A stretch of DNA of 64,000 nucleotides, from the IMG/VR virus record IMGVR_UViG_3300028797_000099, positions 1 through 64,000 of that record; one strand, given 5' to 3'. This document shows, one piece after another, positions 9,199-63,436 of this stretch. Each line of letters starts with the position of its first letter. Position 1 is the first letter of the stretch. The translations under genes were made by a program, and so were the position numbers. Under the pieces are notes generated by a model. It made no database searches and was not told the DNA's origin. It worked only from the letters and a program-made list of their open reading frames with translations. Source of the stretch: a virus. Its lineage: Duplodnaviria; Heunggongvirae; Uroviricota; Caudoviricetes.

Positions 9199-9792
9199 TT
9201 AGTCCTTATAAAGCTGGTACTTCTTGCTGAGCTTATGGCTCTGTTCGTCGGGGAGGGGCTTGAACCAGATTCCGACACGGCAGAACTTCTTGCCCGTTTC
9301 CGGGTCTTCGGAGTCCGGGGTCAATTCGGTGAGGCAGGCATCGTCGATGAAGTCGTAGTCGACGCCCTTAACCAGACCGAGTTCCTTGGCGGTTTCCTCG
9401 ACCTTCATTAAGTGGTTGAGGTTCCTGGCTTCACAGATGGTCTTTGTGAAGATGCCCTTGACATAGTCCTCCCAGATATCCTTTGGGATGTTAACCGTAA
9501 CTGAAATAGATTTGTCTGGATTCTCCCTAGGATAGGTAAACTCCTTCAGGCCAGCCTTGTGAGCTTCCTCAGCCTTCTCGAAGATTGCGGGATTCCGATA
9601 CCTTATCCAGTAGTCGGGGTCGCTCGGGATTTCCGTAGGCAGGGTCATGAACTCGTTGTCCGTGACGCCAAACAGGAGGGCGAAGTGCTTTATGAGGCTT
9701 GTCCAGTAGCCTTCGGCGCAATGGGCGACCATGGCGGCCAGCTTGCCTGGGGAGAGGTGCAAATCCTTTCTGATGATGAACAGTCTACGCAT
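9199..9792 (-). CDS. Pth2-family peptidyl-tRNA hydrolase-like protein with C-terminal extension
   Basis: N-terminus RRLFIIRKDLHLSPGKLAAMVAHCAEG matches the PTH2 signature (vvR.DL.mg.GK.aAQ..HA). Confidence 0.55.
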   Translation of the reverse strand: MRRLFIIRKDLHLSPGKLAAMVAHCAEGYWTSLIKHFALLFGVTDNEFMTLPTEIPSDPDYWIRYRNPAIFEKAEEAHKAGLKEFTYPRENPDKSISVTVNIPKDIWEDYVKGIFTKTICEARNLNHLMKVEETAKELGLVKGVDYDFIDDACLTELTPDSEDPETGKKFCRVGIWFKPLPDEQSHKLSKKYQLYKD

Positions 9793-16085: not shown

Positions 16086-17183
16086 CTAATTCAATCCAAT
16101 TAAATCAGGATGAACAAACTTGCCGTCTTCCTGGATGAGCTGGTCGTCGAACCATACCTTACCGCCACCGTATTCCTTGGTCATGATGAGGACCAAATCC
16201 CAGTGGATAGCAGACTGGTTACCATTGAACGCATCCTGATATGCGTTGCCCGGTGTAAAGTGGATTGAGCCAGCAATCTTCTCGTCGAAGAGGATGTCGC
16301 ACATCGGACGGTTAACCATCTTGTTGAGACCCATGGCGAACTCGCCTACGAAACGGGCTCCCTCATCCGTGTTGAAGATTGCGTCGAGAGCTGCCTGGTC
16401 GCCAGAACCGCACTTGGCTTCGACAATCTTGCCATCTTTAAAGACAAGGCTGATGTTGCTGAACGGCTTCCCGAGATACACGGTAGGCGTGTTGTAGGTG
16501 ATTGTTCCGTTTACGCTGTTCTTGACCGGGGCCGTATATACTTCGCCGTCAGGGATGTTCTTTTCGCCACAGCAAGGAATAGCGGGCAACCCCTCAATGC
16601 TGAAACGCAGGTCGGTTCCCGGTGCGACGATACGGACATTACGGGTCTTGGTCATGAGGTCAGCAAGAGGCTTGGCTGATTTTGCCATCTGAGTGTAATC
16701 CACGAGACAGGCATCGAAGTAGAAGTCCTCGAACGCATCGGTGGACATCTTTGCTTCCTGTGCCATGGCAGCGTTCGGCCAACGGGTGATGCACCACTTG
16801 GTATGGTCAACTCGATAGCGGAGAACGGGCTTCATAATCTGCTTGTACTCCGTGAGGATTTCACTAGGCACATCCGCCATTTCGAACGCATTTTCTGCGC
16901 CACGGACTGCGATGTACGCCTGCATTTCCTTCATGAGTGAAAGTTCGAAATTAGCACGGAATTGCTTGGCTTCCTTTGATGCGTACGTCACGAACTCCCT
17001 TTCCACACTGCTGTCATGGGTACGAACAATGGGTTTAGCACCAAGACCCGTAGCGAGGAAAGTCAACGCCTTCGAAATGCTCGACGGAGTATCGGTACAT
17101 TCAATAAGAATGTGGTCCCCTTTTTTCAAATTAACTGATTCAATGAGACGGTCGGCAAGGTTGAGAACTCTCGTATCAAACAT
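16086..17183 (-). CDS. M29-family aminopeptidase (AmpS/PepS-like)
   Basis: 365 aa. GEVYTAPV, FVGEFAMGLN and SIHFTPGNAY blocks resemble thermophilic aminopeptidase T/S. AAGGAG RBS. Confidence 0.65.
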   Translation of the reverse strand: MFDTRVLNLADRLIESVNLKKGDHILIECTDTPSSISKALTFLATGLGAKPIVRTHDSSVEREFVTYASKEAKQFRANFELSLMKEMQAYIAVRGAENAFEMADVPSEILTEYKQIMKPVLRYRVDHTKWCITRWPNAAMAQEAKMSTDAFEDFYFDACLVDYTQMAKSAKPLADLMTKTRNVRIVAPGTDLRFSIEGLPAIPCCGEKNIPDGEVYTAPVKNSVNGTITYNTPTVYLGKPFSNISLVFKDGKIVEAKCGSGDQAALDAIFNTDEGARFVGEFAMGLNKMVNRPMCDILFDEKIAGSIHFTPGNAYQDAFNGNQSAIHWDLVLIMTKEYGGGKVWFDDQLIQEDGKFVHPDLIGLN

Positions 17184-28053: not shown

Positions 28054-28082
28054 AAATATAGCACATTAAAAGTCGGCTGTCA
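28054..28082 (-). promoter_or_regulatory. promoter TTGACA-17-TATATT
   Basis: Motif match. Confidence 0.5.
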
Positions 28083-28086
28083 AGGG

Positions 28087-28404
28087 TTATCCCTCCTTTT
28101 CTTTAAAATCTTCTGAAGAAAATTCAGTCGACTTCGTTGGAGGATTGTCTTTCCGATTCCTTCTCTCAACAAGAAGGACATTCTCTCGGACAATGTCCAC
28201 GGCATCTTCCTTAGTGTAGTAGATAGTAGTTCCACCATAGATTTCACGCTTCTTGTATTTATGTACACAGTCATAAAAGCTATAATCGACAGGAAACCAC
28301 CAGAACAGGCCTTTCTCCTTGATATAGTACATCAGACGGTCGTACTCGGGACAATAAAATTCAACAACCTTGTACTTCTTAGGTTTCTTTTTAAACCATT
28401 CCAT
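28087..28404 (-). CDS. hypothetical protein
   Basis: 105-aa ORF. Confidence 0.45.
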   Translation of the reverse strand: MEWFKKKPKKYKVVEFYCPEYDRLMYYIKEKGLFWWFPVDYSFYDCVHKYKKREIYGGTTIYYTKEDAVDIVRENVLLVERRNRKDNPPTKSTEFSSEDFKEKEG

Positions 28405-28424
28405 GTCATACCCCTTGCACTTTG

Positions 28425-28793
28425 TTATCCCTTATCAGCCTCTGGTTTGAAACTGTATATAAGGGCGATATTGCCGATACGTTTCTTGAACTCGTCAAGC
28501 CCAACCCCGAGCTGCAATCTCGTGCGGTACGTGTTGAAACGGATGCTGCCGTCTTGCTCGGCAAACACGTCATCTGCCGGGATTGAAACCCATTTGCCGA
28601 ACGCCAGGTAAATCTGGCGGTGCATCATGTCGATAAATACGTCCCGACGGAAAAGGCTTTCGTGCCTCATCCTCTTGGCGACATCGACCATCGCACCGAC
28701 AATATTGTCGAACTTGCAGTTGGAGGTGTCCATCTTGGCACCAGCCCTCAGGTCTTTAAGTATTTCTTCATCAACCGCTTCTGAACTGCTCAT
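28425..28793 (-). CDS. hypothetical protein
   Basis: 122-aa ORF. Confidence 0.5.
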   Translation of the reverse strand: MSSSEAVDEEILKDLRAGAKMDTSNCKFDNIVGAMVDVAKRMRHESLFRRDVFIDMMHRQIYLAFGKWVSIPADDVFAEQDGSIRFNTYRTRLQLGVGLDEFKKRIGNIALIYSFKPEADKG

Positions 28794-28795
28794 AT

Positions 28796-30007
28796 TTACT
28801 CCGATGCCTTGAAGTTATATACAGGCTTGATTGTTTCGACAATATCGCAACTGTCCTTGATGTTCTCGATGATTTCCTTTGCTGGCTTGTAAGCCATCGG
28901 GGATTCATCCAAAGTGGATTTATTTACACATGTACTGTAAATGCCACGCATGGACTTCTGGTACGCTTCGAGCGAGATGCTTTCCTTCGCATGAGAGCGT
29001 GACATCTTTCTTCCTGCTCCATGCGGTGCAGAGAAGTTCCAATCAGAGTTTCCCTTGCCCGTGCAAATAAGAGCCCCGTCCCTCATGTTCATAGGAATAA
29101 TCAGGCGTTCGCCTTCCTGTGCGGATACAGCTCCCTTACGGAGAATCATGTGCTTCATGTCGATGTAATTATGCAAGGTGCAGAACTTGTCCACGACATG
29201 CAGACGGAGCGCCCTGACAATCTCTTCAAGCATCGCTTCACGGTTACGTGTTGCAAAGTCCTGTGCCAACGCCATGTCATGCAGATATCCGTCGAACGAC
29301 TTGCCAGTGAGGTAAGACAGTTCCTTCGGGGGAGGGAAATGAGGGATGCTTGCCAACGCTGCGGGAAGCTCGTCTTCACGACCCTCACTCTTATACTTGG
29401 CTATTATGGCACCACGCTGCTGAGTCAGGTCGTTGCATTCGTCGATTGCAACTCCCTGCCAGTAATCACAGGTTGCCAACCCAAGATGTCGGGAACCTGA
29501 GTGGATTACGATGTACAGGTTACCATGAGAATCCTTGTCGCATTCGCAGAAGTGATTGCCTCCGCCCAAACTTCCAAGCGACAACAACTCGGTATATTCC
29601 ATCTTCCCTTCCTTGTAGACAATCATATCCTCGATAGGAAAGTCCTTTGCCATCGAGTGCTTGCTTTCACGATGGGACTTCCCAGACGGAATCCTTTCAC
29701 GGATAACCTTGTCCAATTTATCAAAATCAACCGAACGGTCTTTCAACTTGGCAACAAGCATACCACACCCAATGTCCACCCCGACGAGATTAGGCACAAT
29801 CTTGTCCTTAATCGTCATGGTAGTGCCAACGGTGCAGCCCTTCCCAGCATGCACATCGGGCATGATTCTAACCTGCATGTCCTTAGCCCAGCACTGACAC
29901 ATCATGTTCAACAACTGTGTATATGCATCTGGGTCGATATTGTCGCTGAATACCTTGGCGGTATTAAACCTACCCTGTATATCAATCATAATAAACCTAT
30001 CTACCAA
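28796..30007 (-). CDS. rtcB: RNA-splicing ligase RtcB
   Basis: 403 aa with the diagnostic RtcB motifs MPDVHAGKG, GCGM, GGGNHF and HGAGR. Confidence 0.9.
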   Translation of the reverse strand: MVDRFIMIDIQGRFNTAKVFSDNIDPDAYTQLLNMMCQCWAKDMQVRIMPDVHAGKGCTVGTTMTIKDKIVPNLVGVDIGCGMLVAKLKDRSVDFDKLDKVIRERIPSGKSHRESKHSMAKDFPIEDMIVYKEGKMEYTELLSLGSLGGGNHFCECDKDSHGNLYIVIHSGSRHLGLATCDYWQGVAIDECNDLTQQRGAIIAKYKSEGREDELPAALASIPHFPPPKELSYLTGKSFDGYLHDMALAQDFATRNREAMLEEIVRALRLHVVDKFCTLHNYIDMKHMILRKGAVSAQEGERLIIPMNMRDGALICTGKGNSDWNFSAPHGAGRKMSRSHAKESISLEAYQKSMRGIYSTCVNKSTLDESPMAYKPAKEIIENIKDSCDIVETIKPVYNFKASE

Positions 30008-30353
30008 TCAATTCTTTTTTATAACCATAGGCAATATCAAATGCCTTACCCATCTCAATCGCCGCTCGGATAGCCTTCTTGATGTCATTATCCTTCACAA
30101 CGCAGTCGTACAGATTTCCGAACGCAACTGGACTCGAATACTCCCGGTCACGAGTACGTATTTCACTCCACATGAGTGTATTGCCGTCATTAGTATCCTT
30201 GTCCTTGTAGAAAGACATGTTCAAAACGGTGTTATTGAACGTGATATTCAACATGCTACCGTCAGCAACTACTCCACAGTCAGGCAGATAGTGCATAGCG
30301 AAATCAAGGTCATCCTTCTTGATTCGCAAATATTGAAGATTCCGTCGTGCCAT
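29997..30353 (-). CDS. hypothetical protein
   Basis: Track ORF trimmed to MARRNL (AAAGGAAT RBS). The longer N-terminus would read through the tRNA. Confidence 0.45.
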   Translation of the reverse strand: MARRNLQYLRIKKDDLDFAMHYLPDCGVVADGSMLNITFNNTVLNMSFYKDKDTNDGNTLMWSEIRTRDREYSSPVAFGNLYDCVVKDNDIKKAIRAAIEMGKAFDIAYGYKKELIGR

Positions 30354-30375
30354 AGTATTCCTTTTCAAAAAGTTA

Positions 30376-30449
30376 ATCGGGCAGGTGGGATTCGAACCCA
30401 CACTGAAGGGGGTTTAAACCCCATTCCTCTACCAGTTGGGTTACTACCC
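30376..30449 (-). tRNA. tRNA, anticodon UAA (Leu-type decoding) with short variable loop and imperfect D-stem (atypical)
   Basis: Minus-strand cloverleaf. Acceptor CGGGUAG/CUGCCCG (one G-U). D-loop AACUGGUA. Anticodon stem GGGG/CCCC. Loop UUUAAAC, anticodon UAA. T-arm GUGGG-UUCGAAU-CCCAC. No encoded CCA. 74 nt. Confidence 0.7.
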
Positions 30450-30462
30450 GAACCAATTCAAT

Positions 30463-31611
30463 TTAGTCAGAAAGCAGACGCTTGATTCTGTCACGAGCCC
30501 GCATGAAGTTTTCATGGTAGGTTCCGTTCAGATAAACAACATCTTCTGTGCAGTAGTGCTTACCGAGAATGCTCATCAAGACCTGATACTGCTTCTTCCT
30601 ATCTTCGAAGCTGTTCGTGAGGCAATCCCTGCTTCCGTCCTGCACCCAGCTATCTTTTTTCGGAGGCATAACGAAGATGAGGTCGTATTTCAGGAACTTC
30701 GCATTGGCTTCGATAAGCTTATAGTCGTCTTCGGTGATGGCATACCTGTCATCCATCGAGTAATACTTAGCGTACATGAGCGTTGTCATTGCGTCACTGT
30801 CACAGATGTTGACCTTATGCCAACTTGCCGAGTTGACTCTGTACTGCTCGTTAAGAAAACGAAGGTAGTCATTAAAGGTCAGCTTGGTATCATCAGGCTG
30901 CGGTTCCTTTCCGTTTTGAGCGGCGATGTAAGTGTGACCGTATTCCTCGGTGTACCCAACATCGAAGTATCTGGCAAGGTCTTTCGTGAGCGTGGACTTG
31001 CCTTCCGATGCCGTACCGATAATCAGGACACGCTTGGCGAACTGAGCCTTGAACTCATGCCCAATGATTTCGTCCCAATACTTCATCGGTTCCTTGCGTA
31101 TCTTTGTTGCAGAAATCTGATTGAGCTCTCTCGGCAACAGATACACATTGGGGCCTTTACTGACCAACGACATGATTGCCTGTCTGTACGACGGTTCGCC
31201 AGTAAAGACAGTCGTTTTCTGAAGCAATTTCGTACACTTTCGCTTGCTGACATCAGCATTGCCGTACACGATTTCAGCGAGCTTATCGCTGAGAGCTTCC
31301 AACCATTCAGACCATTTGTCCATGTAACCTGCAATGCCGATATCGTTATCCTTCATCATGACGACGTGAACAAGCGGGTCGCCTTCAAACATCTTCTTGA
31401 TGATTTCATAGCGACGTTCAATCGGAAGACCGATTCTCGTACCACGGTCGCCATCAAGCCCGCAAACGGCAATGATTGCACCCTTAGAGCAGAGCTTCTT
31501 CGCTGCCATTACGAGGTCAAGATGACCTGTATGCATCGGGCTGAAAGACCCGAGGACAACCCCGTATTCACGAGGGCCACCGCTGATTTGGTTAATCACG
31601 TCGTCAAGCAT
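30463..31611 (-). CDS. nadR: bifunctional NMN adenylyltransferase / ribosylnicotinamide kinase (NadR-like, no HTH)
   Basis: N-terminal nucleotidyltransferase motif GSFSPMHTGH (H/TxGH). C-terminal P-loop kinase GTASEGKST. Domain order matches NadR. Confidence 0.75.
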   Translation of the reverse strand: MLDDVINQISGGPREYGVVLGSFSPMHTGHLDLVMAAKKLCSKGAIIAVCGLDGDRGTRIGLPIERRYEIIKKMFEGDPLVHVVMMKDNDIGIAGYMDKWSEWLEALSDKLAEIVYGNADVSKRKCTKLLQKTTVFTGEPSYRQAIMSLVSKGPNVYLLPRELNQISATKIRKEPMKYWDEIIGHEFKAQFAKRVLIIGTASEGKSTLTKDLARYFDVGYTEEYGHTYIAAQNGKEPQPDDTKLTFNDYLRFLNEQYRVNSASWHKVNICDSDAMTTLMYAKYYSMDDRYAITEDDYKLIEANAKFLKYDLIFVMPPKKDSWVQDGSRDCLTNSFEDRKKQYQVLMSILGKHYCTEDVVYLNGTYHENFMRARDRIKRLLSD

Positions 31612-32295
31612 TTAAGCCTCCACAGTGTCTGTTTCAAGCTTCTTCTCGGTATGAGACCATTCGACCCAACCGTAGATGGTGTTGATAAACCAGCAAACAT
31701 ACATCGCCACCATTGCCCATTCGCCAATGAGTGCGAAAGTCACGATGGAAATGCCATCAAGCACAAACCAGAAGAACCACTGTTCACGGTAGCAAGTGAT
31801 AATGAGAATCTGAGCAATGACCGTGAAGCTTATGCTCAACGCATCCATGTACGGAACTGCACCGTCAAGAACAAACTTGTCGAACGTACCGAAGCCAACG
31901 GTAAGAACGATTGTCGCAATAATCGAAATAACCCATGCCTTAGGAGAGAGTCGCTTCGGAATAACGTGCGTTCTGTCCTTTTCGAGCTGCTTGTACCATG
32001 CGTACAAACCATACACCATCGTCACGTTGTAGAAGATATATTCGCCAAATTCAAGCCACAGGCGGCTTTCCCAACAGATGTACATATACATGAAGTTGAA
32101 AACGAAACTCGGTGCGTAAGCCCAGATGTTCTTCTGTGCAAACATCACGGTTGAAATCGTTCCCAGGAGTGCCGTCAGCATGGCAAACCACATTGCGGTA
32201 TGGCCATCAGGCATCATGATGGTGAAGATGATGGTGAAGATGATGAACGCTGTCATGTACAGCGCACGGAATTTATTTTTGATAAAAGACATATT
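31612..32295 (-). CDS. pnuC: nicotinamide riboside transporter PnuC-like membrane protein
   Basis: 227-aa Trp-rich polytopic membrane protein directly upstream of nadR, the classic pnuC-nadR arrangement. Start MSFIKN behind an AAAGAAGG RBS. Confidence 0.55.
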   Translation of the reverse strand, partial: NMSFIKNKFRALYMTAFIIFTIIFTIMMPDGHTAMWFAMLTALLGTISTVMFAQKNIWAYAPSFVFNFMYMYICWESRLWLEFGEYIFYNVTMVYGLYAWYKQLEKDRTHVIPKRLSPKAWVISIIATIVLTVGFGTFDKFVLDGAVPYMDALSISFTVIAQILIITCYREQWFFWFVLDGISIVTFALIGEWAMVAMYVCWFINTIYGWVEWSHTEKKLETDTVEA

Positions 32296-32330
32296 GCCTT
32301 CTTTGTTGATGGTTTTTGTTGTTTGTGAAA

Positions 32331-32359
32331 AATATACTAACTTCATTCCCCTCTGTCAA
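32331..32359 (-). promoter_or_regulatory. promoter TTGACA-17-TATATT driving pnuC-nadR; -35 in CCCC/GGGG hairpin
   Basis: Motif match. Confidence 0.5.
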
Positions 32360-41327: not shown

Positions 41328-42278
41328 TTACCATCCTTGGGTTGTAACCTGAAGCAGGTCATGAATGTTTTCCTTACCCGTGAACGAGTAACGCTTGTCC
41401 AGAGCTGCGGTGCTCATGCGGGCTACCTGCATGTTCGGAACGTCGATGTACATCGTGGCACAGGTGATGTTCCCGTCAGCATCCTTCACATCCGTGTCGG
41501 AACCCTGGAACAGCGTATTGAAATCCTTGTCAGAGATATTGAGAGCCGTCTTCGGGTCCAACTGTTCTATGCCGAGGCAGTCGAACGACATCACCTTAAA
41601 GGGAAGAATCGAGCGCATCATCATGAATTTCAGCCAGTTGATATTAGCCTTGATTTCATCACTGTGCTTTTCAAGCATGGCATGACCACGACGCAAATCC
41701 TTGTAACCAAGGATAAGCACCTTCCTGTCGCTCAATGCAGGGAGGTCCTTCGCAGTCAAGATGCCCGCAATGGTATGGATTACAACATTGTCGCCGAGCG
41801 TGTCGATGAAGTCGAAGTCTTCCTTGTTGCTGGAATCCGTAAGCGAGATGCCGATACCGTGAACGAGACCGTCGCCCACAATCTTGCAGATGATGTCCTT
41901 GTACGGTTTCAGGTGACGCTGGTTGATTGTGATGTTTGCGATTACACCCTGTTCCTTCAAGCGTTCGAGGAACCAGACGAGGTCAGGATGGGCCAAGGCG
42001 TTGCCACCACCGATAGCGCACTCGGTTCCTGAATGAAGGGTAGCAATCATCGGTTCCAATGCCCTGAGGTCGCCATGCTTGCCATTTACCGTAGAGTTTT
42101 CATGGCAGTAAACGCATCCACCGTCGCACTGGTCGGTAATCTTGATGTCAAAGTTCTCGGGAAAATCATATGTGAAATGGTCGGCCATCGGGTCGAGCGT
42201 TTCCTTGATTTTGGTGCCATCCGAGTAGATGGTCACCATATGGTTGCCGTTTGTATATGTGTTAAGTATCGTTCGCAT
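41328..42278 (-). CDS. radical-SAM enzyme (candidate 7-carboxy-7-deazaguanine synthase QueE-like)
   Basis: CDGGCVYC is the CxxxCxxC radical-SAM cluster motif. It is adjacent to and co-oriented with the QueC-like gene. Confidence 0.5.
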   Translation of the reverse strand: MRTILNTYTNGNHMVTIYSDGTKIKETLDPMADHFTYDFPENFDIKITDQCDGGCVYCHENSTVNGKHGDLRALEPMIATLHSGTECAIGGGNALAHPDLVWFLERLKEQGVIANITINQRHLKPYKDIICKIVGDGLVHGIGISLTDSSNKEDFDFIDTLGDNVVIHTIAGILTAKDLPALSDRKVLILGYKDLRRGHAMLEKHSDEIKANINWLKFMMMRSILPFKVMSFDCLGIEQLDPKTALNISDKDFNTLFQGSDTDVKDADGNITCATMYIDVPNMQVARMSTAALDKRYSFTGKENIHDLLQVTTQGW

Positions 42279-42279
42279 C

Positions 42280-43257
42280 TTAGTCTCGCCAACGGTTTCT
42301 CTTCATTTCTTCAATGAATCCTTCGGGGTAGTACAATTCGTTAGACATTCCATTGTACGTTCCCGACATGTGAATGATTTCCGACGTAGCCTTGTCGTAA
42401 GTCTGGCATGCAACGCAATGTCCGCAACGACCCTTGTATGTCGGGCTATAACAGAAGCTACACAGTTCGATAGGGAAATGACGGTAGTTCAAGTTACGGA
42501 TAATATCCGCCTTTGTCAGGAACTGAAGGGGATAGCTGAACATGATATTCTTCTGCCCAACCACCGTCAACAGATGCTCCTGTGCGGCAAGGATATTGTG
42601 CGACCAGTTCCAGAAGTCGTCACCCTTGTGATATCCGAAGTGGTAGCAGGTCTTATTCCTGCCACACAGAGATACCATCGAGGCCATAAAGGGTTGTTGG
42701 AAAAGAGACGGTTCCGAACCGTTCCAGTTATCCATATTCCCTTCAAGCTTAATGAAATCTCGTTTAGGTTCATAGTCGTACTTCTTAGCGAGATATTCGA
42801 GAATCTTTTCCTGAGAAGCAACTTCAGACAAATAGTGATGGGATGTGCCAAACTGTTCACACCGGAAGCTGAGCAAGCGTGGCTTGATACCCTTTTCGAG
42901 CAAATCAACGAGAATAAGCGTACTGTCAAGACCACCACTGAATACTACCGCATTGTTGATAATATCTTCAAACTTCTTTGTAATAGGCTTTACTTCATGG
43001 AGCCTATCGAAGACCTTCTCTGCGGCAGATTTGAATTGGTGGGTTTCCTCAGGCGATTCGACATCGCACAAAACTTCTTCGGGAGCGGCGTCGCACAATT
43101 CCGCTTCATCTTTCTTTTCATCCTCAGCGTCCACCTTCAATTCAGCCTTATACGGCTTCTTTTTGGCCACGAGAGCTCGCTTCAACAGGGTGCCGTATTT
43201 CGGTTTAGACTTTGTTTCTGGACGAATCTTTTCGTTTGATTGTTTCTTTTTAGTCAT
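42280..43257 (-). CDS. queC: QueC-like PP-loop ATPase (7-cyano-7-deazaguanine synthase-like) with Lys-rich N-terminal extension
   Basis: PP-loop SGGLDS plus a C-terminal zinc cluster CSFCYSPTYKGRCGHCVACQ, typical of QueC. About 70-aa K-rich N-terminal tail. Confidence 0.55.
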   Translation of the reverse strand: MTKKKQSNEKIRPETKSKPKYGTLLKRALVAKKKPYKAELKVDAEDEKKDEAELCDAAPEEVLCDVESPEETHQFKSAAEKVFDRLHEVKPITKKFEDIINNAVVFSGGLDSTLILVDLLEKGIKPRLLSFRCEQFGTSHHYLSEVASQEKILEYLAKKYDYEPKRDFIKLEGNMDNWNGSEPSLFQQPFMASMVSLCGRNKTCYHFGYHKGDDFWNWSHNILAAQEHLLTVVGQKNIMFSYPLQFLTKADIIRNLNYRHFPIELCSFCYSPTYKGRCGHCVACQTYDKATSEIIHMSGTYNGMSNELYYPEGFIEEMKRNRWRD

Positions 43258-61874: not shown

Positions 61875-62768
61875 TTACAATATAGTATTTACACCCTTTT
61901 CTTTCAAGAGGGCAAAGAACTTTTCTGGCGTAATAATCTTAACGCCGAGCTGTTTTGCCTTCTTGGACTTCGTGGAGGTAGAGTTTTCGTCAGCCTGTAC
62001 GAGATAGTCCAGCTTTGCGCTTACGCTTCCCTTTACCTGTCCACCAAATGTCTTCACAGTGCGTTCAAGGTCGTCACGGTTGTATTCCATAGCTCCCGTG
62101 AAGCAGAACGACATTCCGCCGAGCGCATCCATTTCTACAGGTTTCTTGAAAGTGAATTTGCCCAATTCAAGAACCCCGACGATTTCATCGAGAGCAGCGA
62201 ACATCTGGGTAAACAGATTCATTTTGACATCATATGCGCTAAACCCATTGATTGCTAGCGTGGAGAGTCTTTCCGGGGTATACGAGCTGAATGTAGCCAT
62301 TGTCGAAAGCGGATTTTCATACCATCCGCCGAACAATTCAAGCGTTTCCAATCCAGACAGCTTTGCTTCGGAGAAACCATCAAAGTCAAACATAGACAGG
62401 AACTTGCTCATTGAAATCGGCTTGCTTAACGCAGCAAGCATATTGTTTCGCAACTTAGCCCCGTTTACCTGGCTCTTCATGGCAAGCGAAATGTCGTTTC
62501 CGCCAGACACAGCATCGGAAATCAGCTCAGGAATCTTTTTCATTCCCACTTCGTTGACAAGGGCGGTAACACAACTTTCGCCTGCACCGTCTATTTCCAA
62601 CACGTCGAAGAAGTTGGCAAACTTGTGGACAATCTTCTGCGGGCACGACGGGTTCACGCAGCAAACCATCCCGTTGTCCATTACATTCAACTCTCCGTGG
62701 CATACAGGACATTCCTTAGGGAACGCAATGTTAGATGCCACATATTCTTTGTACTTTTCTGGAACCAT
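61875..62768 (-). CDS. ligA: NAD+-dependent DNA ligase, C-terminal fragment (Zn finger, HhH, BRCT)
   Basis: CPVCHGEL...CVNPSCP zinc finger, helix-hairpin-helix region, and BRCT SFCFTGAMEYNRDDLERTVKTFGGQV...DYLV. The start overlaps the protease stop as TAATG. Confidence 0.7.
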   Translation of the reverse strand: MVPEKYKEYVASNIAFPKECPVCHGELNVMDNGMVCCVNPSCPQKIVHKFANFFDVLEIDGAGESCVTALVNEVGMKKIPELISDAVSGGNDISLAMKSQVNGAKLRNNMLAALSKPISMSKFLSMFDFDGFSEAKLSGLETLELFGGWYENPLSTMATFSSYTPERLSTLAINGFSAYDVKMNLFTQMFAALDEIVGVLELGKFTFKKPVEMDALGGMSFCFTGAMEYNRDDLERTVKTFGGQVKGSVSAKLDYLVQADENSTSTKSKKAKQLGVKIITPEKFFALLKEKGVNTIL

Positions 62769-63436
62769 TATAACTCCCATGCAAGTTTAGCTGACTTGAA
62801 CTCATCCAGCGAGTTCAAGATACTGATGACACATTTTTTAACATTTTTGGTGTTCGGATATTCCGTCACACCGTTTCTTTCAAGCATACGAATAACCTCC
62901 GTAGACTTAACCAAGTTGCTCGTATTGCGTTCTACCGTCGATACCGACCTGCTTACGCCACCAACCCTTCCATCCCTGGTAAAATTGGGCCCGCCGGACA
63001 TTCCAACCTGCAGTAGTCCATTCATGCGATAAAAACTAGGTTCGCCTTCATAGTTGTACAACAAGCGTATATCCATCGGTATAATAGTCGGATTATGCTC
63101 GATAAACGGCTGAGGATAACCATACGCAGTTAGCTTCTCCCCGATAGGCAGTTCCGTATGGGCTAAGCGGCATACCATAGGCAATGAGGTAGGAGTCTCT
63201 TTCAACTTTAACAAGGCAATATCAGACAGCGAGTCGTAATCCACTATACGGACCTGGTAGCAAGTATCATTCTTCATGTCATAATAGCATGCATGTCTAT
63301 AATTCGACACTACATGATATGCAGTCACAATGTACTTGCTGTTTACAAAGAACCCCGTTCCTCCATGCACATCCTCGACAACCTCAGCAAAGGAAGCGCA
63401 AGCGAACAACAAAATGATAGCGAGTAGTTTTTTCAT
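62768..63436 (-). CDS. secreted trypsin-like serine protease (S1 family)
   Basis: Signal peptide. His motif TAYHV, Asp DIALLKL, Ser GMSGGP. Confidence 0.7.
   Translation of the reverse strand: MKKLLAIILLFACASFAEVVEDVHGGTGFFVNSKYIVTAYHVVSNYRHACYYDMKNDTCYQVRIVDYDSLSDIALLKLKETPTSLPMVCRLAHTELPIGEKLTAYGYPQPFIEHNPTIIPMDIRLLYNYEGEPSFYRMNGLLQVGMSGGPNFTRDGRVGGVSRSVSTVERNTSNLVKSTEVIRMLERNGVTEYPNTKNVKKCVISILNSLDEFKSAKLAWEL

Follow-up and report, generated by a model that had tools for sequence, protein, structure and literature searches.

We found that the 64,000-nucleotide stretch of phage DNA analysed here (64 kb; hereafter, the window) carries a tRNA-Leu(UAA) gene and an RtcB RNA ligase gene in the same orientation, as an earlier note on this DNA had claimed. 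The finding is real yet fairly ordinary; i.e., the shape of the tRNA is normal for a widespread short-armed family. The genes are transcribed in the order PnuC, NadR, tRNA, a 118-aa open reading frame (ORF) and RtcB, all on the minus strand, and gene identities and gene order are established (Table 1). We consider it somewhat probable (approximately 0.55) that they form an operon in which a functional short tRNA-Leu, an active RtcB and the PnuC–NadR pair sustain translation and cofactor pools against abortive infection.

Table 1. Features of the tRNA–RtcB locus in the window, in the direction of transcription
Feature	Position	Strand	Evidence or remark
Promoter-like site upstream of PnuC	32331..32359	-	TTGACA, 17-nt spacer, TATATT; 11/12 matches (consensus scan)
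PnuC-like nicotinamide riboside transporter	31612..32346	-	PF04973 131.4 bits; phrog_1880
NadR-like bifunctional NMN adenylyltransferase + ribosylnicotinamide kinase, without HTH	30463..31611	-	PF01467 + PF13521; phrog_3462 210 bits
tRNA-Leu(UAA), short-variable-loop (type I), 74 nt to discriminator A73	30377..30450	-	ARAGORN, Rfam RF00005, family alignment
118-aa ORF between tRNA and RtcB	29997..30353	-	Starts 23 nt past the tRNA, ends 7 nt ahead of the RtcB start codon
RtcB RNA ligase, 397 aa	28796..29989	-	Pfam PF01139 213.7 bits; phrog_1075 441 bits
Two small conserved ORFs, 122 aa and 105 aa, directly downstream of RtcB	28087..28793	-	Orientation as RtcB

The tRNA had been placed beyond RtcB, and the small ORF downstream of it. 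Because the minus strand is used throughout, the tRNA is transcribed before RtcB, and the ORF (30353–29997) lies upstream of RtcB. The 23-nt gap between the tRNA and this ORF was given correctly, and the tRNA is present as described, with its end at 30450 instead of 30449, one base further. The NadR stop codon lies 12 nt ahead of the tRNA, and the cassette genes are presumably co-transcribed. No terminator-like sites were found on the minus strand from 32346 to 28087, i.e., none inside the cassette. The promoter-like site is a weak candidate for the start of a PnuC–NadR–tRNA–ORF118–RtcB operon, because the count of such sites did not exceed the shuffle expectation. An archease (RtcB activator) profile or fold was considered for the 118-aa ORF and was not found. 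The 122-aa and 105-aa ORFs had no Pfam or PHROG match; syntenic homologues of both were present in related contigs. The phage is very large (related contigs of up to 419 kb) and belongs to ruminant and other gut metagenomes. The window itself is pieced together from accessory genes unrelated to one another, including QueC-like, radical SAM, glycosyltransferase, Band 7 and LemA genes.

The tRNA was called as Leu-taa by ARAGORN. A fold check against Rfam RF00005, which the earlier note had proposed, gave 47.2 bits (gathering score, 29) with a full-length match (1–71). RF00005 was the sole Rfam match, whether the region was searched at E ≤ 1 or the entire window at gathering thresholds; Y RNA and YrlA, the tRNA-like RNAs of Rsr–RtcB operons, were rejected as candidates, with no Rfam match. 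ARAGORN and Rfam agreed with the earlier reading of the anticodon loop as UUUAAAC and of the anticodon as UAA. As both put UAA in a 7-nt loop, a shifted anticodon or suppressor reading was discarded. The tRNA has C1-G72, the D-loop CAACUGGUAGA and no encoded CCA. Its variable loop has 5 nt (UCAGU) without a long variable arm, again as first described; the tRNA thus lacks the type II arm of bacterial tRNA-Leu and was filed under the type I subfamily and not under classical type II. The leucine identity elements of E. coli are A73, A15-U48, G18G19 and A20a, the long arm being dispensable (PMC9976931). All of these elements are carried by the window tRNA, which has a Leu-type elbow (U8:A14, A15:U48, G18G19, a UAGA segment with A20a, and an 11-nt D-loop on a 3-bp D-stem) and discriminator A73 at window position 30377, in a register backed by the family alignment.

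The D-stem had been read as ACCC versus GAGG with two mismatches. This reading was in the wrong register, as seen in an alignment of 30 related short tRNA-Leu sequences: the 4-bp register leaves only 55.8% of cells paired, whereas a 3-bp D-stem (positions 10–12 with 23–25) and an 11-nt loop give 98.9% of cells paired, with covariation. Across the same 30 sequences, the full cloverleaf is 98.0% paired and 19 of its 20 pairs covary. The structure of the short tRNA-Leu family is therefore established, with covariation. Single-sequence minimum free energy folding did not give the cloverleaf D-arm and is uninformative beside the covariation evidence. In the family register, the window tRNA has a lineage-specific A10·A25 mismatch in the D-stem and U27·U43 atop the anticodon stem. 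The 10:25 pair over 103 unique members is GC in 80, UA in 16, CG in 6 and AA in 1; that is, the window tRNA is the sole member with 10:25 unpaired. Generic tRNA models misplace the D-stem register of short tRNA-Leu, such that sound genes look defective.

According to textbooks, tRNA-Leu is always long-armed outside animal mitochondria. We defined the short family by CCCAACUGGYAGAGG, 20–32 nt and then GGGTTCGAATCCC, combined with a variable loop of 5–7 nt and an anticodon for Leu. A motif search of databases returned 141 matches, 20 in viral contigs and 121 in at least 120 mostly actinobacterial genomes, and all 141 are tRNAs with a Leu anticodon. The variable loop has 5 nt in 93 of the 103 unique members, A73 terminates all 30 aligned members, and the window tRNA fits the motif exactly. 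Its odd shape had been taken as the sign of a special role; instead, both the D-arm and the shortness of the loop characterise a widespread class, found in phages of many hosts and in those actinobacterial genomes. Short-armed tRNA-Leu is thus far commoner than the textbook statement suggests.

Chromosomal short tRNA-Leu(CAA/UAA) genes were found in Mycobacterium, Bifidobacterium, Actinomyces and others. They share with the window tRNA the CCCAACUGGYAGAGG D-arm, the 3-bp stem, the 11-nt loop, A73 and an anticodon that reads the UUR codons of Leu. The window tRNA differs in being phage-encoded and in having C1-G72 instead of the usual G1-C72, unpaired A10·A25, and U32. Streptomyces coelicolor charges a type I tRNA-Leu whose variable loop has 5 nt, but E. 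coli LeuRS did not charge it in vitro (PMC6614811); charging of the window tRNA would therefore depend on the host LeuRS. The 5-nt variable loop is common to the S. coelicolor tRNA-Leu(CAA) (PMC6614811) and the window tRNA, reading ACAGC in the former and UCAGU in the latter.

Cultured phages also have such short genes annotated as tRNA-Leu. Pseudomonas phage ZC03 tRNA-Leu(UAA) and Erwinia phage phiEa21-4 tRNA-Leu, both annotated as 77-nt tRNA-Leu, are 83.6% and 82.5% identical over 85–91% of the window tRNA. The T-arm and the UCAGU variable loop are the same in ZC03 and in the window. However, the ZC03 and phiEa21-4 genes lie in tRNA arrays, unlike the window tRNA, and no RtcB is listed within 1.5 kb on either side of them. 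In the ZC03 tRNA, positions 10 and 25 pair as A10-U25 and the anticodon loop reads CUUAAAA, whereas the window tRNA has A10·A25 and UUUAAAC; ZC03 also encodes CCA (read directly for ZC03 only), which the window tRNA does not. An origin by deletion from the type II tRNA-Leu(UAA) of the sister clade in L005 was not supported, since the closest relatives are short members (L032, 61/74; L024, 59/74; phage ZC03, 83.6%). The literature searched gave no explicit account of phage short-armed tRNA-Leu, which does not prove its absence, as GenBank already annotates such genes.

The RtcB match to PF01139 spans profile positions 14–425 of 426 (cutoff, 27 bits). The motifs quoted in the earlier note (MPDVHAGKG, GGGNHF and HGAGR) were all found, together with GVDIGCG and HSGSR. 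D-x-H, D-x-x-C, GNHF, HxGSR and HGAGR align with Thermus thermophilus TTHA1785 and Pyrococcus horikoshii RtcB; the metal-binding residues and the histidine nucleophile of the P. horikoshii structures lie in these motifs. A catalytically dead RtcB, named at the outset as a result that would speak against the pairing, is not indicated, as the catalytic motifs are intact in the alignment. The ligase activity of the enzyme and its substrates are predicted. Phage RtcB ligases have been described as a supplement to phage tRNAs against RNase effectors (PMC7824862). Like T4 Pnkp/Rnl1, which acts on PrrC-cleaved tRNA-Lys, and jumbo-phage RtcB (PMC7824862), the present gene is a phage RNA ligase tied to tRNA maintenance. 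RtcB belongs to another enzyme family than T4 Pnkp/Rnl1 and seals 2',3'-cyclic-phosphate and 5'-OH ends directly, without end-healing enzymes. Unlike in both of those systems, the ligase here has one lone tRNA gene physically linked with it.

The tRNA–RtcB link is conserved in 12 related loci and in a sister clade. The tRNA is 100% identical and the gene arrangement the same in all 12 loci, which are related phages and not independent observations; synteny of the locus is conserved. In the sister clade, whose RtcB is 63–66% identical, RtcB lies within 4 kb downstream of tRNA arrays. In loci L001 and L002, only 18 nt separate the tRNA end from the RtcB start codon, suggesting co-transcription there. 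No tRNA was found within 4 kb upstream of RtcB in L004 or within 6 kb of RtcB in Bacillus phage Grass, and adjacency of RtcB and tRNA as a general phage rule was rejected because it fails for the latter. Around the identical tRNA, flanking DNA is 57–97% identical and neighbouring proteins have 66–98% amino acid identity. As the tRNA is identical amid diverged neighbours, it is under purifying selection. The L002 tRNA is a variant with a compensatory change from G31-C39 to A31-U39 and a U10-A25 pair, and its structure is kept.

The PnuC-like and NadR-like genes upstream of the tRNA resemble the NARP3 system. NARP3 consists of PnuC-like Bas30_87 and NadR-like Bas30_86 and experimentally counters Sir2–HerA (PMC13464706). 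Judged from its domains, the window pair has the same architecture, with adjacent PnuC-like and HTH-less NadR-like NMNAT + RNK genes. Both pairs are two adjacent co-oriented genes, with NMNAT + RNK in NadR and no HTH. NARP3 was described in Enterobacteriaceae phages, whereas the phage here is a huge one from the gut, and the tRNA and RtcB come after the pair in the proposed operon. The true start of PnuC is probably the ATG at 32292, because its relatives are called at 226–227 aa. The position of the tRNA–RtcB cassette directly downstream of this predicted NARP3-like pair fits a counter-defence reading, and an operon for counter-defence and translation maintenance is plausible.

We propose that RNase P and 3' processing would release the tRNA from a polycistronic transcript and that the host would add CCA. 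Host LeuRS may then charge the tRNA with leucine via A73 and the Leu-type D/T elbow (U8:A14, A15:U48, G18G19 and the UAGA segment of the D-loop), and the charged tRNA would decode UUA and, if U34 is modified, also UUG. Leucine charging of the window tRNA is predicted from these elements. Meanwhile, RtcB would act as an active 3'-phosphate/5'-OH RNA ligase and reseal tRNAs, and possibly other RNAs, that are cut by host metal-independent ribonucleases in infection, whereas PnuC and NadR would rebuild NAD+. The operon as a whole would thereby keep translation and cofactor pools going against host abortive-infection responses; any tie to a particular host nuclease is something that we infer. Against this reading stand the unpaired 10:25 position of the tRNA and its Rfam score, the lowest of the members checked, as well as the rarity of UUA in the phage genes and the loci in which RtcB has no tRNA close by.

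Among the alternatives, it is possible but unlikely that the tRNA is a nuclease-resistant replacement. A host anticodon-arm nuclease would destroy the host's own tRNA-Leu(UAA), the phage tRNA would be a poor substrate (U32, C38, U27·U43, A10·A25 and no long arm), and RtcB would repair the rest. Of 50 unique family members with anticodon UAA, 45 have the loop CUUAAAA or CUUAAAC and only 2 have U32, such that UUUAAAC departs from the majority, the baseline being the family and not the host tRNA. The positions at which the window tRNA departs from that of L002 are concentrated in the anticodon arm and the variable loop, the acceptor and T arms being identical, and none of the 12 loci varies at the deviant bases, which are thus fixed. 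In addition, the adjoining NARP3-like module is a predicted anti-defence system, and documented phage tRNAs evade anticodon nucleases by loop changes or neutralise PARIS and retron effectors (PMC10264068, PMC11464382, PMC11555353). T5 tRNA-Tyr against PARIS (PMC11464382), tRNAs against retron effectors (PMC11555353) and loop-mutated mycobacteriophage tRNAs (PMC10264068) share an anti-defence context with the window tRNA, and its anticodon loop off the family majority resembles theirs, a likeness that is known here from sequence and is a lead only. However, C38 and U27·U43 are found in chromosomal family members too, the short arm is no phage invention but a trait that cellular tRNAs of the family have as well, and we identified no bacterial anticodon nuclease specific for tRNA-Leu(UAA). 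A bacterial nuclease with specificity for type II tRNAs was rejected as a candidate; the only bacterial Schlafen that has been characterised has tRNA-Lys, tRNA-Met and others as its targets and does not single out type II tRNAs (PMC13056530).

A more far-reaching form of the replacement reading is decidedly doubtful. Here, A10·A25, U27·U43 and U32/C38, fixed in the phage group, would be adaptations against a host tRNA-arm nuclease, and the operon a three-part counter-defence cassette in which NAD+ would be rebuilt (PnuC–NadR), the targeted tRNA replaced (short tRNA-Leu) and cut tRNAs resealed (RtcB). The 118-aa protein evolves fast and might inhibit a host effector directly. In a wider version of the same reading, phages would favour short-armed tRNA-Leu because it escapes nucleases that read the type II long arm. 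If the resistant replacement were true, the cassette would amount to an anti-defence module that is both compact and transferable.

It is rather unlikely, if less so than this elaborate form, that the tRNA and RtcB are incidental neighbours, the tRNA topping up UUA/UUG decoding, RtcB acting on other RNAs or nothing related, and their adjacency arising because huge phages cluster their accessory genes. The RtcB homologues of Bacillus phages are not beside tRNAs, the accessory genes of the window form a patchwork without relation to one another, and mosaic recombination breakpoints are located around the tRNA; all three speak for chance neighbours. Nevertheless, the linkage holds in three different tRNA contexts with RtcB identity down to 63%, and the 18-nt abutment in L001 and L002 also speaks against chance. 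UUA is, moreover, the joint-rarest Leu codon of the phage, accounting for 3.6% of Leu codons in 25 supported phage genes (UUG, 24.6%); therefore, a demand for the UAA isoacceptor is not obvious. An argument from codon compensation was set aside on this low share, and its evaluation needs the host genome.

A decoy or sponge, in which the tRNA is unused in translation and occupies a host tRNA-targeting effector, is very improbable. The D-stem is weakened by A10·A25, and the Rfam score is the lowest among the members checked (others, 50.7–65.7 bits). MiaA uses the A36-A37-A38 context for i6A37, and C38 would take this context away. However, every leucine identity element and a standard 7-nt anticodon loop are retained, and the perfectly conserved acceptor and T arms, together with the compensation in the L002 anticodon stem, are the pattern of a translating tRNA. 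Least probable of all, a decaying, non-functional and hitch-hiking tRNA gene, to which two non-Watson–Crick pairs, the missing CCA and a rare cognate codon might point, is disfavoured by the identity of the tRNA in 12 loci amid flanking DNA of 57–97% identity and by an Rfam score far over the gathering threshold.

The window adds one more phage pairing tRNA supply with RtcB, here joined, in very large phages of the ruminant gut, to an NARP3-like NAD+ module. A broader theme of translation clean-up had also been suggested, drawing in two further genes of the window. Domain searches confirmed both, the Pth2-like gene with PF01981 at 39.2 bits and the M29 aminopeptidase at 177.9 bits; the theme itself is weak, because Pth2 lies 20 kb away and the M29 aminopeptidase is no translation-repair enzyme.

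Every gene of the cassette region lies on the minus strand and, in transcription order, a PnuC-like transporter and a NadR-like enzyme directly precede the co-oriented tRNA, the NadR stop codon being 12 nt away from it. The reading with the best support is that of an operon which would keep up cofactor pools and translation capacity during infection: PnuC-NadR would rebuild NAD+, the short-armed tRNA-Leu(UAA) would be supplied as a functional tRNA, and RtcB, an RNA ligase, could reseal cut tRNAs. In a consensus scan, a promoter-like site preceded PnuC and the cassette itself contained no terminator-like site; this weakly suggests an operon. Shine-Dalgarno-like sequences before some genes (e.g., AAGGA ahead of the 118-aa ORF, ORF118), together with the sigma-70-like matches, hint at a host outside Bacteroidota. 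What the earlier note observed is real, though partly mis-described. Its genes and RtcB motifs were correct, as were the anticodon, the 5 nt of the variable loop and the spacing of 23 nt (ARAGORN, Rfam, PF01139/phrog_1075, alignment). However, it inverted the gene order: the tRNA is the first of tRNA, ORF118 and RtcB, and the small ORF lies upstream of RtcB.

Features of the cassette and of other genes in the window
Feature	Coordinates	Strand	Remarks
Sigma-70-like site	32331-32359	-	TTGACA, 17-nt spacer, TATATT; 11/12 matches; intergenic, upstream of PnuC
PnuC-like transporter	32346/32292 to 31612	-	1st in transcription order
NadR-like NMNAT+RNK enzyme	31611-30463	-	2nd; without HTH domain
tRNA	30450-30377	-	3rd; 74 nt
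ORF118	30353-29997	-	4th; 118 aa
RtcB	29989-28796	-	5th
Two small ORFs	28793-28087	-	last, after RtcB
Second sigma-70 consensus match	28055-28083	-	TTGACA, 17-nt spacer, TATATT; 11/12; intergenic
PTH2 peptidyl-tRNA hydrolase domain	9199-9792	-	39.2 bits; insertions, 197 aa vs 115-position profile
M29 aminopeptidase	16086-17183	-	177.9 bits
Radical-SAM protein and QueC-like protein	41328-43257	-	side by side
301-aa ORF	61875-62780	-	

The window RNA was called tRNA-Leu with anticodon taa by ARAGORN and was the sole Rfam match in the 64-kb window. Its 47.2 bits against RF00005 (gathering score 29) was the lowest among the family members checked (others 50.7-65.7) and far over the threshold. The D-stem mismatches claimed previously reflect a register error. 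We counted pairs in two registers on 30 distinct short tRNA-Leu (alignment A4): the generic 4-bp stem, used in the earlier note and in the Rfam alignment, was paired in 55.8% of cells, whereas a 3-bp stem with an 11-nt loop (CAACUGGUAGA), the classical tRNA-Leu arrangement, was paired in 98.9%, and all three pairs showed both-side changes. Generic tRNA models set the D-stem of short-variable-loop tRNA-Leu in the wrong register. Among the 103 unique motif-matching members in the matches listed, the closing 10:25 pair was GC in 80, UA in 16, CG in 6 and AA in 1, the A·A belonging to the window lineage alone. The window tRNA also has U27·U43, which is found in other family members too. Its anticodon loop reads UUUAAAC; CUUAAAA or CUUAAAC was present in 45 of the 50 unique UAA members among the matches listed.

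IMG/VR was searched with the D-arm motif joined to the T-arm (CCCAACTGGTAGAGG, 20-50 nt, GGGTTCGAATCCC). Twenty contigs matched, all with tRNAs bearing a leucine anticodon (taa, tag, cag, gag or caa), 73-79 nt long in nearly all cases. With either C or U allowed at one position of the D-loop and a spacer of 20-32 nt, the motif gave at least 121 matches in at least 120 bacterial genomes (L050-L169); those listed were mostly Actinomycetota, including Mycobacterium, Bifidobacterium, Actinomyces, Amycolatopsis and Demequina, and 121 of 121 had leucine anticodons (caa 54, taa 47, cag 10, tag 6, gag 4). Close relatives also occur in cultured phages as annotated 77-nt tRNA-Leu genes: identity to the window tRNA is 83.6% for Pseudomonas phage ZC03 and 82.5% for Erwinia phage phiEa21-4 and related phages. 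A charged type I tRNA-Leu(CAA) was already documented in Streptomyces coelicolor (PMC6614811), and its variable loop, ACAGC, has 5 nt as in the window tRNA. The features first cited as odd are family traits, and the occurrence of short-variable-loop tRNA-Leu with this D-arm motif in 120 or more bacterial genomes runs counter to the generalization that tRNA-Leu is long-armed everywhere but in animal mitochondria (PMC9976931). Where short-armed tRNA-Leu stands in tRNA arrays, tRNA-Ser of the same arrays retains the long arm (tRNA length table). SerRS, unlike LeuRS, reads the long variable arm; the simplest reason why phage and actinobacterial tRNA-Leu tolerate a short arm is that LeuRS does not read it.

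Positions 1-73 of the tRNA were identical in 12 loci (window, L001, L039-L047), across which RtcB was 80-99%, NadR 68-92% and ORF118, absent from L001, 66-93% identical; flanking DNA showed 57-97% identity in 60-nt windows. The sole variant, L002 from a 419-kb contig, restores a U10-A25 pair and replaces G31-C39 with a compensatory A31-U39, its acceptor and T arms being identical to those of the window. The identity amid diverged flanks and the compensatory change argue against a decaying gene and indicate a selected, folded tRNA. It bears the E. coli leucine-identity elements (A73, U8:A14, A15:U48, G18G19, UAGA segment); in E. coli, the long arm and anticodon are dispensable for this identity (PMC9976931). 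The type I tRNA-Leu of S. coelicolor was not leucylated by E. coli LeuRS in vitro (PMC6614811), so charging would hinge on the host's own LeuRS. Among leucine codons of 25 well-supported window genes, UUA was rare (3.6%) and UUG made up 24.6%.

In outline the earlier interpretation is plausible, but its specifics lack support. The unusual bases fixed in the anticodon loop and stems slightly favour a possible nuclease-resistant replacement tRNA, although the oddities first cited for it are shared by the family. A decoy gains nothing: none of the leucine identity elements is lost, the anticodon loop has its standard 7 nt and the conservation pattern is that of a translating tRNA. Sequence identity switches mosaic-wise at the tRNA (window about 30350-30470 versus L039, L043 and L044): against the window, L044 has NadR at 68%, ORF118 at 93% and RtcB at 98%, and L039 has NadR at 92% and RtcB at 80%. 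The invariant tRNA may be a recombination junction between modules.

RtcB matched PF01139 (213.7 bits) and phrog_1075 (441 bits) and, aligned to solved RtcB structures, kept D-x-H, D-x-x-C, GNHF, HxGSR and HGAGR. All ORF118-encoding contigs share one order: ClpX-like (opposite strand), further on PnuC-NadR-tRNA-ORF118-RtcB, and further on Band 7. They stem from metagenome assemblies in ENA and Logan, with names suggestive of studies on the ruminant gut. L001 and L002 lack the small ORF; there the end of the tRNA is 18 nt from the RtcB start codon, so close that the two would have to be co-transcribed. No PnuC or NadR was found near the RtcB of a sister clade (63-66% identical; contigs 230-415 kb), whose tRNA arrays, of two different compositions, have RtcB within 4 kb downstream. 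No tRNA lies within 6 kb of RtcB in Bacillus phage Grass or within 4 kb upstream of it in contig L004; the association is not universal. For jumbo phages, it has been proposed that RtcB ligases supplement the phage's tRNAs in countering RNase effectors (PMC7824862). The RtcB-adjoining arrays of the sister-clade huge phages hold 86-90-nt tRNAs with long variable arms and Cys, Gln, Asn and Met anticodons (L005:695-784, L010:562-651, L010:8230-8315, L012:1849-1935). ARAGORN drawings give an 8-bp acceptor stem in Gln and Asn and a 6-bp anticodon stem in Cys, Gln and Asn; these tRNAs recall allo-tRNAs (PMC5389517).

In its architecture, the pair of PnuC and HTH-less NadR matches NARP3, a module with which phages reconstitute NAD+ and which has been shown to overcome Sir2-HerA (PMC13464706). 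Short tRNA-Leu, RtcB in phages and NARP3 are all known kinds, and the locus is a further member of them. Domain matches were confirmed for the Pth2-like gene and the M29 aminopeptidase, which had been assigned to the same theme of translation repair; a link to the cassette, 13-20 kb away, is not obvious. The radical-SAM and QueC-like pair may belong to a 7-deazaguanine pathway that modifies DNA or tRNA. The 301-aa ORF matches the C-terminal part alone of NAD-dependent DNA ligase (phrog_3869 positions 386-655); it may be a truncated ligase or part of a split one, noteworthy alongside a phage NAD+ salvage module.
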